Shown here in pieces: positions 4,432 through 40,099 of a stretch of 40,099 nucleotides of DNA. The DNA is from Candidatus Aenigmatarchaeota archaeon. GTDB taxonomy: Archaea; Aenigmatarchaeota; Aenigmatarchaeia; CG10238-14; SpSt-28. Both the position numbers and the translations under genes were made by a program. The notes beneath the pieces are model-generated. The model did not search any database. It saw only the letters and a list, made by a program, of their open reading frames with translations, and had not been told where the DNA came from. Location: NCBI GenBank assembly GCA_044343155.1, contig JAVZSS010000002.1, positions 1 to 40,099 of the forward strand, in the 5' to 3' direction. The first letter of the stretch is position 1, and the number at the start of each line of letters is the position of its first letter.

Positions 4432-5445
4432 TTAAATTTTTCTTCTACTAATCCTTTCTATATTTTCACAAGCTTGCCTAACATGGCAACCTTTGCATAC
4501 TCTTTCTTTATAATTAGGTAGTTTTGATTTAGGAGGAATTTTCTTAGAAGAATAGATTTTGAATATTTTAGAAACAAGTCTCATAAAATTTTCAACATCC
4601 TTCTTACTAATTTCTATTTTAACTAGGTTGTTTGTTTGAGAATAAAAAATATATGATTGTTTTATGTTTGTTCTAAAATAGCTACCCAACAATAAAGCTT
4701 CACCAATACTTTGAATTAAATGCTCCTTTTTTATTCTTCCCCTATATGAAGCATGTTTTATTTCAATTGGATAAACTTCATTTTCTTTAAAACCTATCAA
4801 ATCTATAGATCCGATCATTCCCAATTTAATACTTATTATTGTTCTTTCTGGAACAATAAAATCAAAATTTTCTTTTTTTATTTCTTCCCAAAACCTTTTG
4901 AGCATACTTTCCATTTCTTCCTCCTTAATCTGAATTAATCCTTCAAATCTTTTTAAACCATACTCTACACTTTCTCTAACCAAAATATTTTCTTCTTTTT
5001 TACCAAAATTTTCAACAAAATTTTTAATAGATAAATGCAAAGCTTCACCATCCCAAACTTTACCTATTTTTTCTTTTTCTTGCTTTGCCAAAACTATTTT
5101 TTCTAACCAAAGTCTTCTAGGACATTGAAAAAATTTTGCAATTTCCAATGGAGTAAGAAACGATTTAGAATTGTATGAGAATTTTCTTTTTACTAAAATT
5201 TTTGCCTCCTCTATAATTTCATCTTTAATCTCTTCTTTTATTTTAATTATTCCTCTATTTGCTTCTACTATTCCTTTAATATTTAAATGCTGTAGTATTA
5301 TGAAAAGATAATCCGTAGAAATTACATTTTCTTTTATAAATTCTTTTTCAATTTCAAATAGTTTTACTTCTTTTCCAATAAACTTCTTTAAAATTTCAAC
5401 TGTCTTTTTAAAACTTTCTTCATCAAATTCTACACTAAACCTCAT
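4432..5445 (-). CDS. Cas4-family (DUF83) PD-(D/E)xK nuclease with 4-Cys cluster and an N-terminal winged-helix-like extension
   Basis: N-terminal Cys motif FQCPRRLWLEK, GEALH, nuclease core GSIDLIGF...VYPIEIKHASY (D...ExK), Q-helix EHLIQSIGEALLLGSYF, and C-terminal CKGCHVRQAC (CxxCx5C). The first roughly 95 aa (..YLFIILQHLNIKGIVEANRGII..) look wHTH-like. Confidence 0.75.
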   Translation of the reverse strand: MRFSVEFDEESFKKTVEILKKFIGKEVKLFEIEKEFIKENVISTDYLFIILQHLNIKGIVEANRGIIKIKEEIKDEIIEEAKILVKRKFSYNSKSFLTPLEIAKFFQCPRRLWLEKIVLAKQEKEKIGKVWDGEALHLSIKNFVENFGKKEENILVRESVEYGLKRFEGLIQIKEEEMESMLKRFWEEIKKENFDFIVPERTIISIKLGMIGSIDLIGFKENEVYPIEIKHASYRGRIKKEHLIQSIGEALLLGSYFRTNIKQSYIFYSQTNNLVKIEISKKDVENFMRLVSKIFKIYSSKKIPPKSKLPNYKERVCKGCHVRQACENIERISRRKI

Positions 5446-8296: not shown

Positions 8297-9223
8297 TTAC
8301 TCTTCTAAAATATACAAAGCTTTCATTCCCTTTTGATACCATTCCTTCAGTTGATTTTCCGTATATAATTCATATTCTTGTGCCAAATATCTTTGATGCC
8401 CCATCAATCTATCAACAATGGGTGCAGGAACTCCAGAAGAGATTAACTGTGTTTTAAACCATTTCCTTAAACAATGCGCATGTAAATTATATCTTTTACC
8501 AACTTTTTTTGCATATTTTTTAAAAGCTTTCTCTAGTAAATATTGTAAATTTTGGTAACTCATTTCTCTTCCATCTTCACTCGAAATTACTGGAGAGTTT
8601 TCGTTTATTTCTTCTCCAGCCATTTTTCTCTTTTCTAAATATTCTATTAGAAACCTTTTTGCTTCTGGCGTAATAAATGTTATTCTTGATTTTCTTTCTT
8701 TAGCTCCAATTCCTTTAATTCTTATAGTAGGAATTTCTTGATTTATATCAATATCTGAAATTTTTAGATTATGTAGTTCGCCAACTCTCATTCCACTAGA
8801 AGCCAAAAGTAATATAATAGTTTTTATTCTCAAATCGCTTTCTTCAACAATCCTTTTTAATTCTTCTTTGCTTGGTAAAACATCTTCATGAACATTAAAA
8901 ATTTTTAAAGGAATATCAATATCAACTTTTAAAGAATTGGCCTCAAAAAATTTCTTTAAGGCGGATATCCAGGCTGCAACTGATTTTGGAGCTAAATTCA
9001 TTCCAGCCAAATAAAGTGCATATTCTTTATAAATTTCATTTTGGTTTTGCTTTTGTTTAACTTCTTCTATAAACTCATCCAAATTTTGAATATTTTTATA
9101 TTCAACAAACTTTTTCAAACCCTTTAAATAAGTTAGCTTAGTATTGTTACTTCTAGTTAACAAATTCAACTCTCCAATCATTCTTTTTACGCTTTCAAAA
9201 TTTTCCAAATCTTTAGCTTTCAT
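8297..9223 (-). CDS. Tyrosine recombinase / integrase (XerA-like)
   Basis: Candidate catalytic residues are SSGMRVGEL (Arg I), HAHCLRKWF (His/Arg II), LMGHQ and a downstream Tyr (EYELY). The N-terminus has a SAM-like core-binding region (LTYLKGLKKFVEY). Confidence 0.75.
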   Translation of the reverse strand: MKAKDLENFESVKRMIGELNLLTRSNNTKLTYLKGLKKFVEYKNIQNLDEFIEEVKQKQNQNEIYKEYALYLAGMNLAPKSVAAWISALKKFFEANSLKVDIDIPLKIFNVHEDVLPSKEELKRIVEESDLRIKTIILLLASSGMRVGELHNLKISDIDINQEIPTIRIKGIGAKERKSRITFITPEAKRFLIEYLEKRKMAGEEINENSPVISSEDGREMSYQNLQYLLEKAFKKYAKKVGKRYNLHAHCLRKWFKTQLISSGVPAPIVDRLMGHQRYLAQEYELYTENQLKEWYQKGMKALYILEE

Positions 9224-10338: not shown

Positions 10339-11025
10339 ATGAAAACAGAAAATGTAATCGAACTAAAAAATGTATCTAAAATTTATAAAATGGATAACAA
10401 TGAAGTAGTCGCACTAAACAATGTAAATCTAAAATTTAGAAAAAGCGAGTTAGTAGCTATAGTTGGTCCTTCTGGATCTGGTAAATCTACTTTATTACAT
10501 ATTATTGGCCTTTTAGACAAACCAACAAAAGGAGAAGTTTTTATAGAAGGGAAAAGGACTTCTACGTTAAATGAAAAAGAAATATCAGAGCTAAGAAATA
10601 AAAAAATAGGCTTTGTTTTCCAATTTTTTAACTTATATCCTACTTTAACAGCTTTGGAAAATGTAGAATTACCTATGATGATTGCTGGTATAGATGAAAA
10701 AGAAAGAAAAGAAAGAGCTAAAAAACTATTAGAAGAGGTTGGACTAATTAAATTTAAAGATCATTTACCATCCCAACTTTCTGGAGGACAAAGACAAAGA
10801 GTTGCTATAGCTAGAGCTATGGCAAATGATCCATCTTATATTTTGGCTGATGAACCTACTGGCAATTTAGATTCAAAAAGCGGTGAAGAAATAATAAGAA
10901 TATTTAGAAATTTGAATGAAAAATATGGAAAAACTATAATTGTTGTAACTCATAATTTGGAAATTATTAAATATTTTAAAAGAATAATAAAAATAAAAGA
11001 TGGAAGAATTGTGGAGGATGAGTAG
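10339..11025 (+). CDS. ABC transporter ATP-binding protein (MacB/LolD-like)
   Basis: Walker A GPSGSGKST, Q-loop, signature LSGGQRQRVAIARA, Walker B ILADEPTGNLD and H-loop VTHN. Confidence 0.92.
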   Translation: MKTENVIELKNVSKIYKMDNNEVVALNNVNLKFRKSELVAIVGPSGSGKSTLLHIIGLLDKPTKGEVFIEGKRTSTLNEKEISELRNKKIGFVFQFFNLYPTLTALENVELPMMIAGIDEKERKERAKKLLEEVGLIKFKDHLPSQLSGGQRQRVAIARAMANDPSYILADEPTGNLDSKSGEEIIRIFRNLNEKYGKTIIVVTHNLEIIKYFKRIIKIKDGRIVEDE

Positions 11026-11026
11026 A

Positions 11027-12244
11027 ATGATTGAAATAAAGAAAATTTTATTGATTGTTATTCTTCTCTTTATTTTTACCCCATCTCTATCCGCTTTGCT
11101 AACACCAGCTTTAACATTTAATATATCTCCAAATCCAATTGTTTCCTTTCCAGGAACTGATGGCTATATTTACATTAATTTAAAAAATGTTGGTAATGAT
11201 TATGCTCAAGATATTAAAGTTGTTGCAATTAATATCGACCCTGGAATTGTATTGCCTTATGATAATGAAATTAAAATAGGTAATTTAGCACCAGGAGATT
11301 CAACTATTGTATTATTAAAATATTCTGTTCCAAATTCTATAGAAAGCGGATTATATAGAGTTAAAATAAAGATTGAGTATTGCCAAGAATCTAGTTGTAA
11401 AGATATTTATCAGTACGCTTTGATAAACGTACAAAGTCCATCAGCATTAAGAGTTAAATCTATATCACCAACAGAAATTAAAGTAGGTAATAGTGAAACT
11501 TTATACTTAACTATATCAAATGAAGGAAATTCTGAAGCAAAAAATATATTTATAACAATTAGAGATTTTAGTGGAAATCTTTTGACATTTGGCTCAGATA
11601 ACAAATACTATATTGAAAAACTTTCTCCAAAAGAAGAAAAAATTATAACATTTAATGTTTCTGTTTCTTCTTTAGCTAACCCAGGACTATATCCAGTTTA
11701 CATTTATGTAGAATATACAGATAAATCGAACTCAAGAATATTTATAAATTCTTCTTTTGGATTGAGAATTCGCGAAGATATTGATTTCTTTGTTGGTACT
11801 CAAGAAGTAAGTGGAAATTTAGTTACTATTTCCATAGGAAATATTGGATTATCAACAGCATATAGCGTAGTATTAGAAATTCCTTCACAGCCAAACTTTT
11901 ATTCTTCTGAGCCTTTAGTGTTTATAGGCAACATAAATCCCGGAGATTACACTTCTGTTTCTTTAAATATTTATCCCGCAAGAACAAATGAAAGCGAAAG
12001 AAAATATAACAATAGTTTAAAAATTTACCTTTACTATACTAATGAAAAAGGAGAAAGAGAAAAAGTGGAAAAAATTATAAAAATTAATCTTGAAAGAAAT
12101 ATAACCTCAACCTATTTTACTCCTAGATTTCAGCAAAAATCTCAAACCGAACCTTTTTATTATTTGAAATATATTATCGCAATTTCGATTATAATTTCTC
12201 TAATTTTACTTCTTTACAAACTTAAAAAAGGAAAGAAAAAATGA
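11027..12244 (+). CDS. Secreted, C-terminally membrane-anchored protein with three CARDB/S-layer-like beta-sandwich repeats
   Basis: N-terminal signal-like helix ILLIVILLFIFTPSLSA. Three related roughly 100-aa modules each end in ..GLY.V.I.IEY / ..GLYPVYIYVEY. C-terminal TM YIIAISIIISLILLLY plus KKGKKK, with many N-x-S/T sequons. The start is set at ATG 11027, 9 nt after GGAGG at 11013-11017. The track start at 11000 or ATG 11018 is also possible. Confidence 0.65.
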   Translation: MIEIKKILLIVILLFIFTPSLSALLTPALTFNISPNPIVSFPGTDGYIYINLKNVGNDYAQDIKVVAINIDPGIVLPYDNEIKIGNLAPGDSTIVLLKYSVPNSIESGLYRVKIKIEYCQESSCKDIYQYALINVQSPSALRVKSISPTEIKVGNSETLYLTISNEGNSEAKNIFITIRDFSGNLLTFGSDNKYYIEKLSPKEEKIITFNVSVSSLANPGLYPVYIYVEYTDKSNSRIFINSSFGLRIREDIDFFVGTQEVSGNLVTISIGNIGLSTAYSVVLEIPSQPNFYSSEPLVFIGNINPGDYTSVSLNIYPARTNESERKYNNSLKIYLYYTNEKGEREKVEKIIKINLERNITSTYFTPRFQQKSQTEPFYYLKYIIAISIIISLILLLYKLKKGKKK

Positions 12245-16948: not shown

Positions 16949-18103
16949 ATGCCGTTGGTTTGGGCGTCCGAAATATATGTAGAAAAAGAAGACAAAACAG
17001 TTAGGATATTACCTATAGATATAATAGAAAGAAAAGAAATAAACCGAATAGCTCAAAGTTCTAAAAAAGAAGAATGGGAGAGATTTAGTTTTCAATTAGA
17101 AAATGATGAAACCAAAACGATTAAAACTCCTTACCCAGCTAGAATAGGTGGCGGTGTTCTGGCTGTAGTAAGTCTTCCAGAGGGTACGTATTATGCACTA
17201 GTCATGAGGGATGAAAAAGCTCCCTCTTATAAGTTATCCTATGATATATTTGCCGGAATTCCGGATACTACAAATTTAGAAAAAACTATGCATGAGTCTG
17301 GGAACAAGAGACTAGTTATGCCGCAAACGTATCGTTTAATATATGAACAAAATGAGCTTGGGTTTATAGTTAGGTATAAAGATTCTATTGCATTTTATAT
17401 ACCAGTTCTAAGAAATGTTTCAGAAGAAGTGAAACGCCATTTAGTTAGTAGTGCGCTTAGCGGTTATCTTTTACTATCACGAGAAATAAAAATACCAAAA
17501 ATAATAATAGAAGAAAGTGGAGAAATAGGAAGTTTTTCGGAAAGCTATAAAATTCGTGAATACGACATTGAAGGAAAAAATGTAATATCTGAGCTTGGAG
17601 GAGCAACAATAACAGTAGAAAAGGAAAGTGGCAGCGTTGAGGTTATTTGGCCTATTAAAATAACTCCCACTATCGAAGGTGAAATTAGACCCATCGACGC
17701 TCAGCTTGATAGAGTCAAGCCTTTTGGCTATGAAATTATTTTCTATGACATGGAAGCTATTGGAAACTTTGACAATCATGGGGGAACACTAATAATCAAT
17801 GATGTAAATCTGCTTAATAGAAATATAGTTTTACTCTCAACAACCAATCCAAACTCATCATATGGTACTATCGTATATAAAGGTGGTAGAACTATATATA
17901 GAGGGAAGTTAAACGAATGGATTGAAGTTAGTGGCTTGAGAGATGCCATAAGAAGGGGGGAGACAACCGGTCTAACCCCAAAAGTAAAACATTTATATAA
18001 ACTCGGAGAAAAAGATGTGGGCATAACCTTTAGTGGTCGTGAACTTAAATTAGATTCGTTTAGAGAATTAGGCAGAATGTTGTATGAGATAAAAAATATT
18101 TAA
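16949..18103 (+). CDS. Hypothetical protein, 384 aa, no recognisable domain (ORFan in the tRNA-Arg-adjacent island)
   Basis: Long uninterrupted ORF with non-repetitive, globular-looking sequence. GC and use of CCG/GCG/CGT codons are visibly higher than in neighbouring genes. No TM segment or signal peptide. Confidence 0.7.
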   Translation: MPLVWASEIYVEKEDKTVRILPIDIIERKEINRIAQSSKKEEWERFSFQLENDETKTIKTPYPARIGGGVLAVVSLPEGTYYALVMRDEKAPSYKLSYDIFAGIPDTTNLEKTMHESGNKRLVMPQTYRLIYEQNELGFIVRYKDSIAFYIPVLRNVSEEVKRHLVSSALSGYLLLSREIKIPKIIIEESGEIGSFSESYKIREYDIEGKNVISELGGATITVEKESGSVEVIWPIKITPTIEGEIRPIDAQLDRVKPFGYEIIFYDMEAIGNFDNHGGTLIINDVNLLNRNIVLLSTTNPNSSYGTIVYKGGRTIYRGKLNEWIEVSGLRDAIRRGETTGLTPKVKHLYKLGEKDVGITFSGRELKLDSFRELGRMLYEIKNI

Positions 18104-33525: not shown

Positions 33526-34407
33526 TTATAGATAGCTTAAAGCCTTTTTTACAGCATTTATTGCTTCTTCCCAATTTGGTGGACTTTGAGTTAAGTTATT
33601 AATAGCCGTATCAATCTGACTATAATAATCATTATGAAAACCAGCGAAGCTCTTCGCTACATTTAACTCATTTACTGCGCCCTGAGCCTGACGATTTCTT
33701 ATCTCAGATAGTGCATTTTCTAAACGCCTTCTAGCTTCTGCTCTCCATCTTCTACCCATAGCTTCATATTTTTCTTTTTCTACAAATCCATATCCTCTAA
33801 AGAAAACAGACAAAATAAACGTTGCTGCAAAAACAACTACACTCCAAATGCCACTAAAAGAAAAAACAACCCAAACAATCTTTACAAACCAACCAACTGG
33901 AATAGTTAGAAATGTAATTATAAATGCTAATATCCTGTTTACTCCACTAGGAACCCCCTCAAATATTTTTATCGTTGTTAAAAAAGCCCAAACGATTGTG
34001 TATATTCCAGCAAATGGTAAAATAAATAAATAAATTATTGCTGGTAAGTACATCCATTCAGGAGGTAACCCAATCATTGTTAAAACTTGAACAACATAAG
34101 AAGGAAGTGGATGCAATTTCAAACTTTCAGGAACTTCTAAGTAAGAAGGATAAGGTACAAATTGAGGAATTACAAATAAAACAAGTAAAATAATTATAAA
34201 TAAAACCAAAAACCAAGGAACTTTTCCCCCACCTGGTTTAATAACACCACCAATCCAAAGTAGTATTAAGACAAAAGCCAAAATAAGTCCAAATACAAAT
34301 ATTGCTCCTAATATATCATTTGTATCTGTAACCCCTTGAGAAAAAACTGGATTAAATAAAATTAATAAAAGAAACGCCAAATAAATAAAAATTTCTTTTA
34401 GCTTCAT
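33526..34407 (-). CDS. Polytopic membrane protein (signal/TM1 plus about 6 TMs) with a helical cytoplasmic C-terminal domain; unknown family
   Basis: Hydrophobicity pattern read from the translation. The C-terminal roughly 75 aa are soluble and Arg-rich (GRRWRAEARRRLENALSEIRNRQAQG...). No motif recognised. Confidence 0.6.
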   Translation of the reverse strand: MKLKEIFIYLAFLLLILFNPVFSQGVTDTNDILGAIFVFGLILAFVLILLWIGGVIKPGGGKVPWFLVLFIIILLVLFVIPQFVPYPSYLEVPESLKLHPLPSYVVQVLTMIGLPPEWMYLPAIIYLFILPFAGIYTIVWAFLTTIKIFEGVPSGVNRILAFIITFLTIPVGWFVKIVWVVFSFSGIWSVVVFAATFILSVFFRGYGFVEKEKYEAMGRRWRAEARRRLENALSEIRNRQAQGAVNELNVAKSFAGFHNDYYSQIDTAINNLTQSPPNWEEAINAVKKALSYL

Positions 34408-34421
34408 TAAGTTTTTTACTT

Positions 34422-34676
34422 TTAATATTTAAATTTTTTCCAATAACCGAGAAAACTAGCAACTATAAAAATTAATAAGAAAATAATTGCAAACAAAGAA
34501 AAAAATACTTTAATTGTATCACTATAGAGATATAAAATTAGCAAAATTGTCAAACAACTAACTATACTTATTACTAAGTTTATATTCTTTGTAAAAAATC
34601 TAATTCTTTCCAAAATACCAAAAATAATTAGAAATGACAAAAAAGAAAACAAAATCAAAAATATATCTTCAATCAT
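34422..34676 (-). CDS. Small 3-TM membrane protein, unknown
   Basis: 84 aa, almost entirely hydrophobic. Packed 2 nt after the upstream ORF stop and 14 nt before the next start. Confidence 0.45.
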   Translation of the reverse strand: MIEDIFLILFSFLSFLIIFGILERIRFFTKNINLVISIVSCLTILLILYLYSDTIKVFFSLFAIIFLLIFIVASFLGYWKKFKY

Positions 34677-34678
34677 AG

Positions 34679-35179
34679 CTAACCAACTATCTCTTTAGCT
34701 TTTTTATACCATTCTTCCTTTTCTATATCTTTTCCTATTTTTTTACTTAATATTTCTAATTTTTCTAGTAAATCTTTTATAGCCCTCCTTTTTTCTTCAC
34801 TTTTTTCTTTTTCATATTCAGAAATAAGTTGCTTGATTTTTGCCACTAAAACATCATAATTTTCTCCTATTATTTCTAATTTTGACATAGAATGCTTAAA
34901 AATTCCATAAAAATATGTAAAAAAGAATATTAGAATAGCAAAAATTCCTGAAAAAATGGGAAAAAATTCTATTATTCCTAAAGAGTATAAAGAGTAAATG
35001 GATAAAGCAGAAATGGATAAAGAAGCTAATGAATAATAAAGAGAATTTGCTTTTTTTTCCCTACTATCAAAAATTCTTGATTTCTTTAGAAAAATAAAAA
35101 TAATCAAATAAAATAGAAGAAAGGAAAAAAGAAGAGTTATTAAAGAAGAAAAATTTCCAAAAAGTAGTTCTTCATCCAT
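34679..35179 (-). CDS. 3-TM membrane protein with a C-terminal coiled-coil domain, unknown
   Basis: 166 aa. TM segments are followed by KIKQLISEYEKEKSEEKRRAIKDLLEKLEILSKKIGKDIEKEEW. Confidence 0.5.
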   Translation of the reverse strand: MDEELLFGNFSSLITLLFSFLLFYLIIFIFLKKSRIFDSREKKANSLYYSLASLSISALSIYSLYSLGIIEFFPIFSGIFAILIFFFTYFYGIFKHSMSKLEIIGENYDVLVAKIKQLISEYEKEKSEEKRRAIKDLLEKLEILSKKIGKDIEKEEWYKKAKEIVG

Positions 35180-35227
35180 AGAAATTTTTACGTTTTAAGT
35201 TTTAAATGAGTTTTCTTAATTTTTCTT

Positions 35228-36565
35228 ATGCTACCCGAAGAAATAAGAAAAGATATTATTCTAAGGAAAAGTGAAACTAATAAAATATTAGTTTATATAG
35301 TAGTTTTCTTTTTATTAATCATAATTGTTTCAATAGTATCACTTTTTATTATATATCCAAGTTTATGGTATAGAACATGTAAAAATATTCCTTTACTTTC
35401 TTCACCTTTTATATGTAATCCTATAGAAGTAAAAATTATCACAGAAAAATCTCCACCAATACCAAAGAGTAGTGGTGTGTCCCCTTACTTATATGCACCA
35501 AAAAATATATATTGTGGTAAAAATTATAAATTTGGCTTTTCTTTCCTAAATAATTATGAAGAAGATATTTCTGTAACCTTTGTGCCGGTTATTTTAAGCA
35601 GTAAAGGCAACCTAGCATTATATACAGAAGAAATAAGCGGAATTTTATTGAAACCTAAAAAATCTTTCCAATCATCATTTTCTTTCGAAATAGACGAACT
35701 AAAAGAGTGGAAAGAATCTTGTGAATGGACTTCAGAGGAAATAGCAGAAGTAAAGAAATTTTATACTATTGAGGAAAATGGAGAAAAAATATATCAGTTT
35801 GATAAAATAGAGTGCTCAAAAGATAAAAAATGTCAAGAAGGATATTTTTGTGGAAAGGAAGAAAAGTATAGATGTATTTGTCTTAATTGGGAAAATATTA
35901 CATGTAATCCAAATAAGTTAACTTTAAGTTTGTTTTATACTCATTCTGGAGTTTTTCGTGCAATAGTACCTCTCTATTATACTTCTTCTGAAAGAGTTAC
36001 ACCACAAACAATAACACAAGAACCTATTAGCGTTCAAATAAAGTTAATTCCTAACCCATATGATCCACAAAGCTCTGTTCAAAAAATTGAGGTTTATCTA
36101 AAAATAAAGAGTTTAAGCGGTAATATAGAAATTAATGAAATTAAAGTAAGTCCCCTTCTAACAAAGGTAATAACAAAAAACAAAGAAAGTGGAATTGTAG
36201 TTGAAGAAACAATAGGATCTACTCTATTAGAATGTAAAAGTATAAAAGAAGCATTCGAAACGAATAAAATAGAGGGCGGAAAAGAAATTGGAGGAACTAT
36301 CTGCTATCTTTCTCCTCCTACAATACAAACAATAGTAAAAGAAGAAGAAAGAGAAGAAAAACTTAATATATCCTTTAATGAAATTTCTTCTTTTTGTAGC
36401 AGATATAAAATCGGAGCTATTTGTAACAAAGAAATGGTAAGTAAGGGAGATTTGAATAAAATAGAAGGGGCCATGAGAGTTATGAATGTTGTTGTTGAAA
36501 TTAAATATACGAGAGAATATTCGGCTTCTCAACCATTAACAATAGCTAAAAATGAAAAAGAGTGA
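35228..36565 (+). CDS. N-terminally membrane-anchored, cysteine-rich extracellular protein, unknown family
   Basis: 445 aa. A roughly 20-aa cytoplasmic N-terminus, then TM ILVYIVVFFLLIIIVSIVSLFIIY, then an ectodomain with about 16 Cys. It includes the dense block ECSKDKKCQEGYFCGKEEKYRCICLNWENITCNPNK. Confidence 0.65.
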   Translation: MLPEEIRKDIILRKSETNKILVYIVVFFLLIIIVSIVSLFIIYPSLWYRTCKNIPLLSSPFICNPIEVKIITEKSPPIPKSSGVSPYLYAPKNIYCGKNYKFGFSFLNNYEEDISVTFVPVILSSKGNLALYTEEISGILLKPKKSFQSSFSFEIDELKEWKESCEWTSEEIAEVKKFYTIEENGEKIYQFDKIECSKDKKCQEGYFCGKEEKYRCICLNWENITCNPNKLTLSLFYTHSGVFRAIVPLYYTSSERVTPQTITQEPISVQIKLIPNPYDPQSSVQKIEVYLKIKSLSGNIEINEIKVSPLLTKVITKNKESGIVVEETIGSTLLECKSIKEAFETNKIEGGKEIGGTICYLSPPTIQTIVKEEEREEKLNISFNEISSFCSRYKIGAICNKEMVSKGDLNKIEGAMRVMNVVVEIKYTREYSASQPLTIAKNEKE

Positions 36566-36568
36566 AGA

Positions 36569-36892
36569 TCATCCTTGTCCTAGTAAATAGATAGTCACAA
36601 ACCAGTCACAAAAATCTCTACATTGAGTACTTTCCCTATCTCCCGAATCTATACAAGCTAAAACATCACTATCTTTACCATATTCTTTAAAGTAGGGTGC
36701 ACAAGTTCTTGGAATACTTGATGGATCGTAACCTGGAGTATTACACATATTTCTTATTTTTGCTTCACAATTTGACTTAGTAGACATTAACTCGAGAGGA
36801 TTAACACCTCTAGTTAAAAAAATAACAAGCAAAATTGCGATAACTATAACAGCAAACACTAAAACCATTGTAAAGGAAACGTCTCCTTTCAT
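36569..36892 (-). CDS. Small Cys-rich type IV pilin-like protein (class III signal MKG|DVS)
   Basis: MKGDVSFTMVLVFAVIVIAILLVIFL followed by a 7-Cys domain containing C-x7-C (CEAKIRNMC) and CRDFC. Confidence 0.6.
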   Translation of the reverse strand: MKGDVSFTMVLVFAVIVIAILLVIFLTRGVNPLELMSTKSNCEAKIRNMCNTPGYDPSSIPRTCAPYFKEYGKDSDVLACIDSGDRESTQCRDFCDWFVTIYLLGQG

Positions 36893-36923
36893 TAGATTAT
36901 ATTTGTTTTTTTATTTATAAGTT

Positions 36924-37478
36924 TTATGAAACTAACTTTGTTAATACTTTGTTAATCTCTTCCACAACACTTTTTAGCTGAGTGTAATTTCCATTTTCTT
37001 CAATAAAAGAAATAGAAGTATTGGGATTTCCAAAAATTGTAAACGAATATGTAGAACCCTTATAAGAATAAGTTATTAATTGGGGGGAAGTAAAAGTTAT
37101 CTCAATAGTTATATTATCTTGAGAAGATATTTTTATATCTCCATTCGGAACCTTTATCCCGCTAACTTCTTCTAGCTTTTTTCTATATTCACTAAAAATT
37201 CGGGAAACATTTGAAGTAAAGCTTTGAAGATCCTGTATTTGTGAAAAATTTTTATAACCTAATTCTTTCATAGCTTGTCTATAAGAAAAGAATAAAGCGT
37301 AGCCTAAAGACCTTTCTACCACGTTTATTATATTTGAGATGGAATAAATTTCACCTTCCCTTGCAAGCTCTTGAAAAGTTAGATACTTATGGAATACAAT
37401 ATTTAACAAATATCCCATAAATAAAAGACCGCAAAAGATTATAACAACAAAAACTAAAATACCGCCGTATAATCTCAT
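36924..37478 (-). CDS. Pilin-like protein with an N-terminal hydrophobic helix, unknown
   Basis: MRLYGGILVFVVIIFCGLLFMGYLL. Five N-x-S/T sequons in the mature part. ATGA overlap with the upstream gene. Confidence 0.55.
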   Translation of the reverse strand: MRLYGGILVFVVIIFCGLLFMGYLLNIVFHKYLTFQELAREGEIYSISNIINVVERSLGYALFFSYRQAMKELGYKNFSQIQDLQSFTSNVSRIFSEYRKKLEEVSGIKVPNGDIKISSQDNITIEITFTSPQLITYSYKGSTYSFTIFGNPNTSISFIEENGNYTQLKSVVEEINKVLTKLVS

Positions 37479-37888
37479 GAAGTCACCAAAACAATTTTTT
37501 CTACCATTCCATATTCATATGGTCTAAAAATATATACATAACCCTCTCTTCCTTTAACGCTTTCATTACCAACTAAAGTAGTTGTTTCATTAGTTATTTT
37601 AAACTCTTTATCTCCCAAAAAGATTTTAGTTTTCTCTTCTATGAAAGTTTTAAATTTATCAAAATCTATACTTTCTCTTTCGCTTAGAATCATATATATG
37701 TTTTTGTAAAGATCATAATTATAAAACAATAACTCAGATAAAAGAAGTTGATTATTGTTGTATTTATACTCTGAAATTACAGTTATTGCTAAATGATATT
37801 TGAAAGAAAGAAGCGCTATCACAATTGCAGCTATTATAACTATATTTACTATAAGACCTATTATTAATATATCAATAATAAAACTCAT
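37475..37888 (-). CDS. Pilin-like / N-terminally anchored small protein, unknown
   Basis: MSFIIDILIIGLIVNIVIIAAIVIALLSF. ATGA overlaps on both sides. Confidence 0.5.
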   Translation of the reverse strand: MSFIIDILIIGLIVNIVIIAAIVIALLSFKYHLAITVISEYKYNNNQLLLSELLFYNYDLYKNIYMILSERESIDFDKFKTFIEEKTKIFLGDKEFKITNETTTLVGNESVKGREGYVYIFRPYEYGMVEKIVLVTS

Positions 37889-38601
37889 ATGACTTCACCT
37901 ATTAAAACAGACAACCTACCAACATGGGTTGTCCCGTTATTATAGTAAATAAGCACTGGAAATCCTTCTGAAGATATAAAAGATTTGGAAAACAAAAGCT
38001 GAGAATTTGATGGCATCGTATTCTCTATACACTTTTCCCAATCATATGGTTGGACTAAATTAAATACTGCAGATACAGGATTTCCTATATTCGTTATAAC
38101 TCTTATTACTGTTCCGAAATCTAATTTAATATTTTCTACTATGCATTCTATAAACTTAGAAAAAAATAGCCCATCAATGGAAATGGGAGAATAAATCCTA
38201 CCTAACCAACCGAAACATTTATTATCTTCACAAGTCTCTAGATCGATTATTCTTATTATTATAAGAGAGTTTGGATAGGTTACTCCAATATCTATTGGTG
38301 TAATTAGTATTTTGACTAGCCTATCTATATGAGTTATTTCCGTCGTATTTAGAAAAATTTTATCTAACTTCTCCGCATCTAATATTCCTCTCCAAATCAC
38401 ATTTCCTTTACCTAATACTATGTTTTCGTTAGAAATTAAATTGAGAGCATAATTTATTGTTTTTCTTTCAAGTGAAAACTCCTTAATAGTTACATGCATT
38501 TCTAAATAGCGTGACATAAAAAAATAATAAACAAAAACGATAATAACAATAATAAATATGGCAATAAACACATTTTGAGTAGTTAAGACAACCCCTTTCA
38601 C
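37885..38601 (-). CDS. Pilin-like protein (GTG start, leader (M)KG|VVL), unknown
   Basis: GTG at 38599-38601, one nt after the upstream TAG. KGVVLTTQNVFIAIFIIVIIVFVYYF helix and a 4-Cys mature domain. Confidence 0.55.
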   Translation of the reverse strand: MKGVVLTTQNVFIAIFIIVIIVFVYYFFMSRYLEMHVTIKEFSLERKTINYALNLISNENIVLGKGNVIWRGILDAEKLDKIFLNTTEITHIDRLVKILITPIDIGVTYPNSLIIIRIIDLETCEDNKCFGWLGRIYSPISIDGLFFSKFIECIVENIKLDFGTVIRVITNIGNPVSAVFNLVQPYDWEKCIENTMPSNSQLLFSKSFISSEGFPVLIYYNNGTTHVGRLSVLIGEVI

Positions 38602-38602
38602 A

Positions 38603-39010
38603 CTATTCGCCTTCTATTTCATAAACAATATTTCCGTCTATAATTTTTTTCCTAAAAATAAATTTCTTAACATTGTCTTTCTGATAATTAAGGTCTATGA
38701 TGATGGGCTGTTTTGAAGAAGTTTTTTCTGCATAGCTTGGCGCCGATTTAAGATCAATCTTAACTAAATAATTACGAACATCAATTGAATATAATAAATC
38801 CTTAGAGGGAACATAAACTACTTCACCACTATATGTAGAAGCTATTGCCGCAATAAAACCAGCAAATTGTCTTGCCACATTTTCAGGAGATGAAAGAGCA
38901 AGCAACTCAATTATAGAAGAAATTATAGGAATTAATGCAACAATTACAATTATAAATGTAATCAAAAAAACTCCAATAATACCAACAAACTCTGAAACAT
39001 CACCCTTCAT
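38603..39010 (-). CDS. Pilin-like protein (class III signal MKG|DVSEF), unknown
   Basis: ATG 39008-39010 gives MKGDVSEFVGIIGVFLITFIIVIVALIPI, with a leader identical to the 36892 gene. The track start at 39019 is a GTG three codons upstream. Confidence 0.6.
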   Translation of the reverse strand: MKGDVSEFVGIIGVFLITFIIVIVALIPIISSIIELLALSSPENVARQFAGFIAAIASTYSGEVVYVPSKDLLYSIDVRNYLVKIDLKSAPSYAEKTSSKQPIIIDLNYQKDNVKKFIFRKKIIDGNIVYEIEGE

Positions 39011-39015
39011 TTTTT

Positions 39016-39282
39016 TCACTTAAACAATTTTTCGCATTCCTCTTTAGTTGGTTCCACTATATTATAATTTTCACATCCTTTTTTAGGATTTATATCTTCC
39101 CATTTCACTTTTTCCCCACCAATGATAGAAAGACAATAACTAATTAGTTTATTTCTACACGCGGTTTCACTTACACTTTCTGAAAAACCTGAAAACCATT
39201 TCCAAAAAACTATTATACCCATAATAGTAAAAAACCCTATCAAAATGGTTACAAAAATTGCGTGTTGAGTAATACATCTCAT
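39016..39282 (-). CDS. Small Cys-rich N-terminally anchored protein, probable paralogue of the 36569..36892 product
   Basis: MRCITQHAIFVTILIGFFTIMGIIVFW, then C-x7-C (CRNKLISYC) and two further Cys. Abuts the upstream gene stop. Confidence 0.55.
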   Translation of the reverse strand: MRCITQHAIFVTILIGFFTIMGIIVFWKWFSGFSESVSETACRNKLISYCLSIIGGEKVKWEDINPKKGCENYNIVEPTKEECEKLFK

Positions 39283-39981
39283 TTAAGCACCTACCAGCTT
39301 TATCAAAAAGTATTGTGTGCTACCAATAACTTTGCGTAGTGTAATTATAGATCTTTGTCCATTAGAAACTTCTATAAAGGAATGCGATTGACCTAATGGA
39401 ATAGAAACAATAGGAGAGATGTAAAGCGTGCAATCTCCTTCAGGAAATTTAGCAGATACAACACTATCTTGCGCATTTAGAATTATTTTTGTTGAAAGTA
39501 TTAAAAGGGGGGCTGAGCCAGTTGCACTAACAAGGGCCTTTTCAAATAGTTCAGAATTAACTAACAAACAATCTAAGCCCCTTTTATTTCCAACGCTTAT
39601 TAATTTTGATAAAGTTTCACCCAATCTTTCATTTTTTTTAAGATTTATAGATACTGGAAAATTAGGACTACATACAGTTTTCATGTTCTTATCTTCATAA
39701 GTATCTTCAGGTATATTATTACAAAAATCTTTACATTTAACCAATTTTCCATCTTCTCTCCAAGAAATTTTCTCAACTTCTGCACTCATGCATCCATATG
39801 TGCATCTATAAAGAGAGCATAACACTGCAGATTCTATACTAGTTGGTTTTTTTTCAAACCCTAAAAAAGAAAATATTTCAGAAAGCAAATGTCTTGATGA
39901 AGTAAAGATAATATATAGAGCTATACCAACTATAATTACTCCAGCAATTAAAAAAACAGGAACTGTTGAAACTCCTCCCAT
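39283..39981 (-). CDS. Cys-rich pilin-like protein (leader MGG|VST), unknown
   Basis: MGGVSTVPVFLIAGVIIVGIALYIIF. The mature domain has 8 Cys, including CSLYRCTYGC and CKDFC. Confidence 0.6.
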   Translation of the reverse strand: MGGVSTVPVFLIAGVIIVGIALYIIFTSSRHLLSEIFSFLGFEKKPTSIESAVLCSLYRCTYGCMSAEVEKISWREDGKLVKCKDFCNNIPEDTYEDKNMKTVCSPNFPVSINLKKNERLGETLSKLISVGNKRGLDCLLVNSELFEKALVSATGSAPLLILSTKIILNAQDSVVSAKFPEGDCTLYISPIVSIPLGQSHSFIEVSNGQRSIITLRKVIGSTQYFLIKLVGA

Positions 39982-40099
39982 TTAATCTAATATTTTTCCG
40001 AATTTAAATAAAATCTAACAACCAAAAATAAATCCAACCCAACCCAATTTTTCACACATGCTTCTTTTCAAATTTTCAAGAGAGAGAACAAAAAACTGA

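Follow-up and report, generated by a model that had tools for sequence, protein, structure and literature searches.

The contig JAVZSS010000002.1 of a Candidatus Aenigmatarchaeota archaeon (DPANN; GenBank assembly GCA_044343155.1), analyzed here over its whole length of 40,099 nucleotides (nt) and hereafter called the window, ends in a block of genes (33526-40099) whose products are membrane or surface proteins without an annotated family. This block is most probably a composite of two units, namely the distal structural part of an archaeal type IV pilus operon (unit 1, 35228-40099) and a trio of membrane-protein genes located next to alba (unit 2, 33526-35179). Unit 1 comprises at least eight genes encoding prepilin-like proteins (p60, which is partial, p232, p88, p138, p238, p137, p184, and p107) and a convergent gene encoding the cysteine-rich ectoprotein E445. 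We assign it to the pilin and adhesin part of a type IV pilus cluster because of its synteny with T2SSE and T2SSF motor genes in relatives, the class III leaders of its products, and a p238 model that combines a helix with a sheet. The second unit comprises M166, M84, and M293, and we treat it separately because a related locus, L099, carries the pilus operon without the trio, whereas two others, L100 and L103, carry members of the trio family without pilin genes.

Synteny with type IV pilus motor genes

Positional orthologues of unit 1 are found directly downstream of genes encoding a T2SSE ATPase and a T2SSF platform protein in four related loci: L084 (GCA_039000725.1), L085 (a JGI metagenome), L087 (GCA_038996605.1), and L099 (JGI 3300035688). 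The L084 operon begins with the T2SSE gene (721 amino acids, aa) and the T2SSF gene (631 aa), followed by genes encoding proteins of 41, 64, 382, 88, 172, 273, 136, and 397 aa, two genes on the opposite strand (102 and 665 aa), three further genes (156, 87, and 291 aa), and finally alba. The same core gene order is shared by L085 and L087. The layout closest to that of the window, with almost identical gene sizes, is found in L099, in which genes encoding a T2SSE ATPase of 747 aa and a polytopic protein of 643 aa precede those of 42, 51, 222, 94, 139, 219, 140, 164, and 108 aa, and the operon closes with a 607-aa gene on the opposite strand. Proteins of the window, or of the strain contig L002 described below, which contributes p38 and the complete p60, match their L099 counterparts in BLASTP as follows: p38 (39% identity, E 1.6e-5), p60 (43%, E 5.4e-11), p232 (31%, E 8e-18), p88 (41%, E 1.2e-24), p138 (34%, E 2e-17), p238 (40%, E 8e-56), p137 (38%, E 1.5e-25), p184 (32%, E 1e-30), and E445 (29%, E 5e-56). 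The match of p107 is weak (E 0.01), and its family link is given by position, length, and cysteine pattern.

The motor proteins themselves are recognizable. The ATPases of the relatives (721-747 aa) score 55 and 48 bits against PF00437 (cut-off 24.9), and their best NCBIfam similarities are to FlaI (135 and 124 bits; equivalog cut-off 550) and TadA. The platform protein P0003 (631 aa), named T2SS F family protein at NCBI, scores 43 bits against PF00482 (cut-off 25.2). Platform homologues are located between the ATPase gene and the first small pilin gene in all four loci, the one in L099 being recognized by position and length only, without a Pfam match.

In this clade, the pilus ATPase is exceptionally long (721-747 aa; L084 7839-10004, L099 3946-6189); its match to the FlaI model begins at about residue 214-260, which leaves an uncharacterized N-terminal region. 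Divergent from the ATPase gene are four conserved genes without a family assignment (L084 5694-7808; L087 43-1610; L099 1656-3908): two encode proteins with five transmembrane (TM) segments (176-187 aa), and the products of the other two (126-131 and 198-218 aa) are soluble coiled-coil proteins.

Pilin-like proteins of unit 1

The pilin assignment draws on the leaders and topology of the proteins, on the architecture of one model, and on the genomic neighborhood, and not on detectable homology to known pilins. A hydropathy scan placed a TM segment at about residues 7-30 in all seven complete pilin-like proteins of the window, the genes of which are all on the minus strand. As judged from sequence, an M-[KR]-G leader followed by a hydrophobic helix is a class III (prepilin) signal. 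A strict pattern, with [KR]-G among the first 16 residues and a strongly hydrophobic 17-mer behind it, was found in three of the seven proteins (p107, p138, and p238), compared with none of the 57 other open reading frames (ORFs). Canonical leaders are present in orthologues of all nine pilin-like families (MKG/QAE, MKG/QVE, MRKG/VTG, MKA/IAW, MKG/LIG, MRG/QIA, and others; the slash marks the end of the putative leader).

The best-conserved of these proteins is p238 (37885-38601; 238 aa), which starts with MKG/VVLTTQ and contains four conserved cysteines. Its orthologues occupy the same operon position in L084, L085, L087, L009, L006, and L099 (25-41% identity, E 1e-17 to 8e-56). In an alignment of 18 family members, KG is conserved in nearly all leaders, which are 2-10 residues long. 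The AlphaFold2 model built from this alignment, which covers one of the seven pilin-like proteins, has a mean predicted local distance difference test (pLDDT) score of 73 and a predicted template modeling (pTM) score of 0.61. It shows a helix at residues 2-56, followed by a beta-sheet with strands at 62-75, 112-136, and 208-236; residues 159-183 are of low confidence. The predicted arrangement of a long N-terminal helix and a beta-sheet is the classic pilin layout. The p238 orthologues of L084, L085, L009, and L006 contain a Gly-zipper-like hydrophobic insertion of about 30 residues with a weak PF13441 match (L084 14139-14960; L085 6385-7212), which is missing from p238 of the window, of L002, and from the L099-type proteins.

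Two small proteins, p107 (36569-36892; 107 aa, six cysteines, start MKG/DVSFTMVLVF) and its paralogue p88 (39016-39282; 88 aa, five cysteines, TM segment at residues 8-26), are members of a single superfamily, the proteins of which are 88-130 aa long and share four cysteines that are invariant in the joint alignment. Homologues of p107 (98-108 aa, six cysteines) adjoin the E445 homologue in L084, L085, L009, L006, and L099, with two copies each in L009 and L006. Orthologues of p88 starting with MKA/IAW or MKA/IAV are encoded in L099, L085, L087, L084, and L013. The orientation of the p107 gene varies: in the window, L002, and L099 it lies on the strand of the pilin operon; in L084 (16575-16883), L085 (8716-9012), L009 (5341-6011), and L006 (3382-4032), it is turned around and runs in the same direction as the gene of the E445 homologue.

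The large and variable p232 (39283-39981; 232 aa, eight cysteines, TM segment at residues 7-25) resembles at its N-terminus the positional equivalents in L087 (530 aa), L013, and L099, which start with MKG/LTV in L013 and MRKG/VTG in L099. Its neighbor p138 (38603-39019; 138 aa), which has the canonical leader MKKMKG/DVSEF, has orthologues in L009, L085, L084, and L099. In p137 (37475-37888; 137 aa, TM segment at residues 7-25), the charged leader is lost (MSFIIDIL); the L099 orthologue starts with MKG/QAE, and positional equivalents of 136-153 aa in L084, L085, L087, L009, and L006 start with MKA/, MRA/, MKG/, MRG/, and MKG/, respectively. The leader of p184 (36924-37478; 184 aa, TM segment at residues 7-25) is degenerate (MRLYG/GILVF); the L099 orthologue starts with MKG/QVE, and larger positional equivalents (338-400 aa) in L084, L085, L009, L006, and L013 have leaders ending in KG. 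Intergenic spacing from p184 to p232 is -4 to +1 nt, as in an operon.

The only gene of unit 1 on the plus strand encodes E445 (35228-36565; 445 aa), a protein with 14 cysteines and one N-proximal TM segment at residues 24-42. Its homologues in L084, L085, L009, L006, and L099 are 525-728 aa long. We count E445 with the pilus unit because proteins of this type (445-728 aa) always close the pilin operon convergently in the loci compared, L099 included. No Pfam match was found for E445 or its orthologues; the protein is probably an adhesin or an anchor.

Upstream continuation and allelic variation in a strain contig

At the window edge, a minus-strand frame (40018..40099, 27 codons) remains open; it translates as ...LENLKRSMCEKLGWVGFIFGC, ends in ...CEKLGWVGFIFGC, and has its stop codon at 40015-40017. 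A 7.5-kilobase (kb) Logan contig, L002, represents a strain variant with 94% nucleotide identity over 35035-40099 and reaches 2.5 kb further upstream than the window. The edge frame matches the C-terminus of a 60-aa L002 protein, MKGLEMEIVKFIILVV...CEKIGWAGFIFGC (start MKGLEMEIVKF), and is thus the 3' end of p60, a prepilin-like gene of about 60 aa cut by the contig end. In L002, p60 is preceded by the 38-aa p38 (MKGISEGVYKIV...), and both proteins start with MKG. Directly upstream of p38, L002 encodes a cysteine-rich protein of more than 720 aa (3-2165) with 21 cysteines and a poly-Gly linker, itself cut by the contig end and located at the position held in the relatives by T2SSF. No homologue of this protein was found in scans of genome contigs and metagenome contigs. 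The single close homologue of p232 (86% identity) among 5.8e9 proteins is also encoded on L002.

The two co-occurring strains do not differ evenly along the locus. Over 35035-37834, most 200-nt windows are 98-99% identical and three reach 93.5-96.5%; identity is 98% over 39835-40034 and drops to 80-95% across p238, p138, p88, and p232 (37835-39834). In this four-gene segment, the synonymous substitution rate (dS) is 0.23-0.41, compared with 0.015-0.14 in the flanking genes, and the ratio of non-synonymous to synonymous rates (dN/dS) is 0.14-0.33, which in our reading agrees with an allele block, either recombined or older, that is subject to purifying selection. Positive selection was considered as the source of the variable segment and rejected on the same dN/dS values, since the difference is in dS. 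The assemblies of the window and of L002 both break near this segment, and an allele block may explain these breaks.

The membrane-protein trio upstream of alba

The genes of unit 2 are likewise on the minus strand. M166 (34679-35179; 166 aa, two TM segments, and a C-terminal coiled coil) is the first and M84 (34422-34676; 84 aa, three TM segments) the second; M293 (33526-34407; 293 aa), the third, precedes the co-oriented alba by 63 nt. The hydropathy scan gives six TM segments for M293; overall, the protein comprises a signal peptide, about five TM segments, and a helical bundle at the C-terminus. Orthologues of M293 with 65-68% identity adjoin alba in L084 and L004. M166 has orthologues of 37-40% identity in L004, L009, L006, and L084 and a further one in L100, and M84 has orthologues in L009, L004, L006, and L084.

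An exhaustive HMMER search with M293 yielded 221 representative clusters at E<=1e-3, 99 of them at E<=1e-10, so that the family comprises at least 221 such clusters. Pfam scans of 74 family members revealed no shared family, and a PDB profile search with M293 returned coiled-coil noise and no sequence relative. The AlphaFold2 model of M293 is all-helical (pLDDT 86.8), and Foldseek found no fold match for it, the best hit, to GPCR/BRIL-type helices (E 0.22), not being meaningful. M166 matches the M293 family in a profile-profile comparison with hhalign (probability 97.6%, E 4e-12), and the M84 equivalent of L100 (87 aa) is matched by the M293-family profile (E 1.8e-7). Judging by these matches, M166, M84, and M293 are paralogues belonging to a widespread unannotated membrane-protein family.

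The pilus operon and the trio are separable. L099 has the pilus operon and no trio downstream of it. L100 (2010-3730) encodes proteins of 169, 87, and 302 aa followed by Alba, with a TrmB gene upstream and no pilin genes, and in L103 (7237-9958) a distant M293-family member is one of four paralogues arrayed in tandem, with SMC/ScpA on one side and GatDE on the other. The trio thus keeps company with alba and probably does not belong to the core of the pilus; at a guess, it could serve as a membrane scaffold with a cytoplasmic coiled-coil tail. Tandem arrays of the family are found in housekeeping neighborhoods, and in Aenigmatarchaeota its members are located directly upstream of alba on the same strand.

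Properties of the block and its surroundings

All 11 complete ORFs and the frame open to the edge are present at the positions listed by the initial annotation, a description based on the DNA sequence alone. Its description of the block as three membrane proteins, one cysteine-rich anchored ectoprotein, and seven pilin-like proteins agrees with the ORF list and the TM segments found by hydropathy scan. The upstream continuation that it expected is provided by the L002 genes. The ORFs are considered real genes because dN/dS is 0.00-0.33 in all eight of those overlapping L002 and because, for every one of the 11, one or more orthologues exist in other lineages. Scans of the block proteins against Pfam, NCBIfam, and PHROG gave sub-threshold noise and no significant family, in keeping with the claim that no family could be named. 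The contrast drawn with the rest of the window also held: the ten other genes scanned were mostly assignable, and the genes outside the block that were readily assigned include those for ribosomal proteins, SecY, FtsZ, ThiI, MacB/FtsX, DHH, and Alba.

The seven best matches of Alba all bear the name Aenigmatarchaeota, and Alba and the DHH protein are 95% and 75% identical, respectively, to their counterparts in the metagenome-assembled genome (MAG) JAWBNO01. Elsewhere, the window encodes a Cas4-like PD-(D/E)XK nuclease (4432-5445), a tyrosine recombinase (Phage_integrase; 8297-9223), a CARDB-domain protein within a MacB/FtsX ABC transporter operon (11000-12244), and a 384-aa ORF without a Pfam match (16949-18103).

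Evaluation of the pilus assignment and alternative explanations

Several observations weigh against reading unit 1 as part of a type IV pilus operon and unit 2 as a separate entity. T2SSE and T2SSF genes are unseen in the lineage of the window: the contig ends at 40099, the L002 gene upstream of p38 encodes the protein of more than 720 aa, and a metagenome scan with a T2SSF alignment found 11 loci, none from this lineage. Four of the seven pilin-like proteins of the window lack a canonical [KR]G leader (MRLYG/G, MRC/I, MGG/V, and MSF). A Foldseek search of the PDB with the p238 model retrieved no solved pilin (best E 0.43), PDB profile searches with the p238 and p107/p88 families found nothing, and no pilin or archaellin model in Pfam or NCBIfam matched any block protein at E<=1. 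A peptidase A24 gene is missing from the window and from the surroundings (about 10 kb) of the L084 and L099 loci; in archaea, the prepilin peptidase gene is often unlinked. As to unit 2, the M293 family shares a 40-column TM motif, F-LPF..Y..L+KS+IFG..N, with the two five-TM proteins whose genes diverge from the ATPase gene in L084, L087, and L099. Some link between the trio and the pilus may therefore exist; the motif could go back to a common ancestor of membrane accessory proteins or be a generic helix motif. In a bolder interpretation, the M166-M84-M293 family would be an unrecognized membrane component that works with the type IV filament machines of DPANN archaea, serving as anchor, stator, or scaffold and touching the long ATPase with its cytoplasmic coiled coils. 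We regard this as unlikely; if true, Aenigmatarchaeota would possess an organelle dedicated to host capture, formed by the nine-pilin filament and its giant cysteine-rich partners.

Another reading accepts the type IV filament machine and assigns it a non-adhesive function, such as a short pseudopilus for secretion, DNA uptake, or display of surface proteins, as in type II secretion, Com systems, or the Sulfolobus bindosome. Such a machine should have the same set of ATPase, platform, and prepilins, the number of pilin-like genes (nine, with large cysteine-rich partners) is unusually high, and the ATPase also scores against the ComGA and BasE models. These scores, however, are far below the respective cut-offs (ComGA 44 bits versus 300; BasE 55.7 bits versus 1000), and the loci examined contain neither solute-binding proteins with class III signals nor ComEC-like DNA-uptake genes. 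The bindosome (Bas) in particular was rejected on the BasE score and on the lack of solute-binding domains in any protein of the loci. Although a pseudopilus and an adhesive pilus are not separable by sequence alone, we consider the former doubtful.

The initial annotation had proposed an undescribed surface or host-interaction system, unrelated to known machineries, formed by a single block of ORFans. In favor of this proposal, no block protein matches a curated family, and the PDB searches gave neither a sequence nor a fold match. However, the orthologues are contiguous and co-oriented with T2SSE and T2SSF in four lineages, class III-type leaders are conserved, and the p238 model has the helix-plus-sheet layout of pilins, which makes the proposal very improbable. 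What stands is a surface system with pilin-like genes, inherited together as one module in other Aenigmatarchaeota, which the initial annotation had proposed to test. The term undescribed does not hold for unit 1, for which it is largely refuted by the motor genes directly upstream in relatives, and it still fits the M293 family alone; of the whole proposal, only the M166-M84-M293 part survives. The products are not ORFans either, given the 221 clusters of M293 and the orthologues of the other ten in other lineages, and the block is not single, since each unit occurs without the other.

An archaellum, that is, a motility locus, scarcely deserves consideration: FlaI is the best NCBIfam match of the relatives' ATPase, and FlaG/FlaI/FlaJ homologues have been mentioned in Aenigmarchaeota MAGs (PMC8407114), yet the FlaI scores fall far short of the equivalog cut-off (135 and 124 bits versus 550), and no archaellin, ArlH, ArlF/G, or ArlC/D/E match was obtained for the window proteins or the relatives' loci. 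Equally remote is a horizontally acquired island or a remnant of an integrated virus or plasmid, for which one could cite the proteins without database families, the four genes that vary between strains, and the tyrosine recombinase gene at 8297-9223; against it, synteny beside alba and the DHH gene is kept across several lineages, the block is bordered by neither a tRNA gene nor an integrase, PHROG gave no meaningful matches, and the guanine-plus-cytosine content is 0.285 in the block versus 0.288 in the remaining window, so that the compositional check proposed by the initial annotation gave no sign of transfer. Horizontal transfer was thus rejected on composition and synteny.

Comparison with known systems

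The characterized archaeal adhesive pili, namely Sulfolobus Aap and Ups, Methanococcus Epd, and Haloferax PilA1-6 with PilB/PilC, employ a FlaI-like ATPase, a TadC/FlaJ-like platform, and class III prepilins cleaved by PibD/EppA. The type IV pilus assignment of unit 1 follows the same ATPase, platform, and class III prepilin logic. The locus described here differs from them in its many more pilin-like genes per operon (nine), in the lack of a Pfam pilin or archaellin match, and in the 721-747-aa ATPase.

In their survey of archaeal type IV pilus loci, Makarova, Koonin, and Albers (2016; PMC4858521) reported numerous small minor pilins along with adhesin-like proteins of large size and cysteine-rich membrane proteins. 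Like the crenarchaeal (Thermoproteales) clade-4 loci of that study, unit 1 combines diverse small minor pilins with a large signal-peptide protein (adhesin or minor pilin) and a large anchored cysteine-rich protein, and conserved cysteines are presumed to form disulfides in both. Unlike those loci, unit 1 belongs to a different phylum, shows no detectable similarity to the respective arCOGs, and encodes an ectoprotein anchored N-terminally and not C-terminally. In DPANN genomes, Makarova, Wolf, and Koonin (2019, Fig. 2A; PMC6393860) described islands with the ATPase, TadC, and unrecognizable signal-peptide proteins, which they read as fast-evolving pilins. The situation in these "dark-matter" islands is the same as here, with signal-peptide proteins lacking similarity to known pilins; in the window itself, however, the ATPase and TadC genes are off the contig. 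FlaI/FlaJ homologues and type IV pili have also been reported in MAGs of thermal Aenigmarchaeota (Li et al., 2021; PMC8407114). Finally, the episymbiotic Saccharibacteria use type IV pili to find and hold their host (PMC9894109, PMC11623550). Their likeness to the present case would be one of function, in an ultrasmall and host-dependent organism, if the pilus described here does attach to a host; their machinery is of the bacterial type IVa, and their pilins are not homologous.

Proposed assembly and biological significance

By analogy with these systems, the prepilins of unit 1 would enter the membrane by means of the hydrophobic helix at their N-terminus. A prepilin peptidase of the PibD/FlaK type (A24), encoded elsewhere in the genome, would trim the short M..[KR]G leader. 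An ATPase of the FlaI/TadA type within the T2SSE family, acting on a TadC/FlaJ-like T2SSF platform, would then extract the subunits and polymerize the filament; in the lineage of the window, the genes for both are expected beyond the contig end. The likeliest bulk (shaft) subunits would be p107 and p88, because they are the smallest of these proteins and have a compact disulfide-rich head. Minor or tip pilins and adhesins are probably represented by p232, p238, p184, and the L002 protein of more than 720 aa. In an ultrasmall and probably host-dependent archaeon, the filament would likely serve attachment to a host cell or surface.

To our knowledge, all cultivated DPANN archaea need physical contact with a host, and the structures that mediate this contact are largely unknown. 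The pilin families described here are unannotated and highly divergent, and the system to which they are assigned is not new in principle; the value of the assignment thus lies in better annotation and in targets for cryo-electron microscopy and proteomics, and not in a new principle. It also sets a widespread, unannotated, alba-linked membrane-protein family apart from the pilus genes. For the Aenigmatarchaeota, it offers a parts list of a pilus now labeled "hypothetical" in databases: prepilins of nine families, two disulfide-rich proteins as candidates for the major subunit, candidate adhesins that are large, variable, and rich in cysteine, and four genes with allelic variation between strains.

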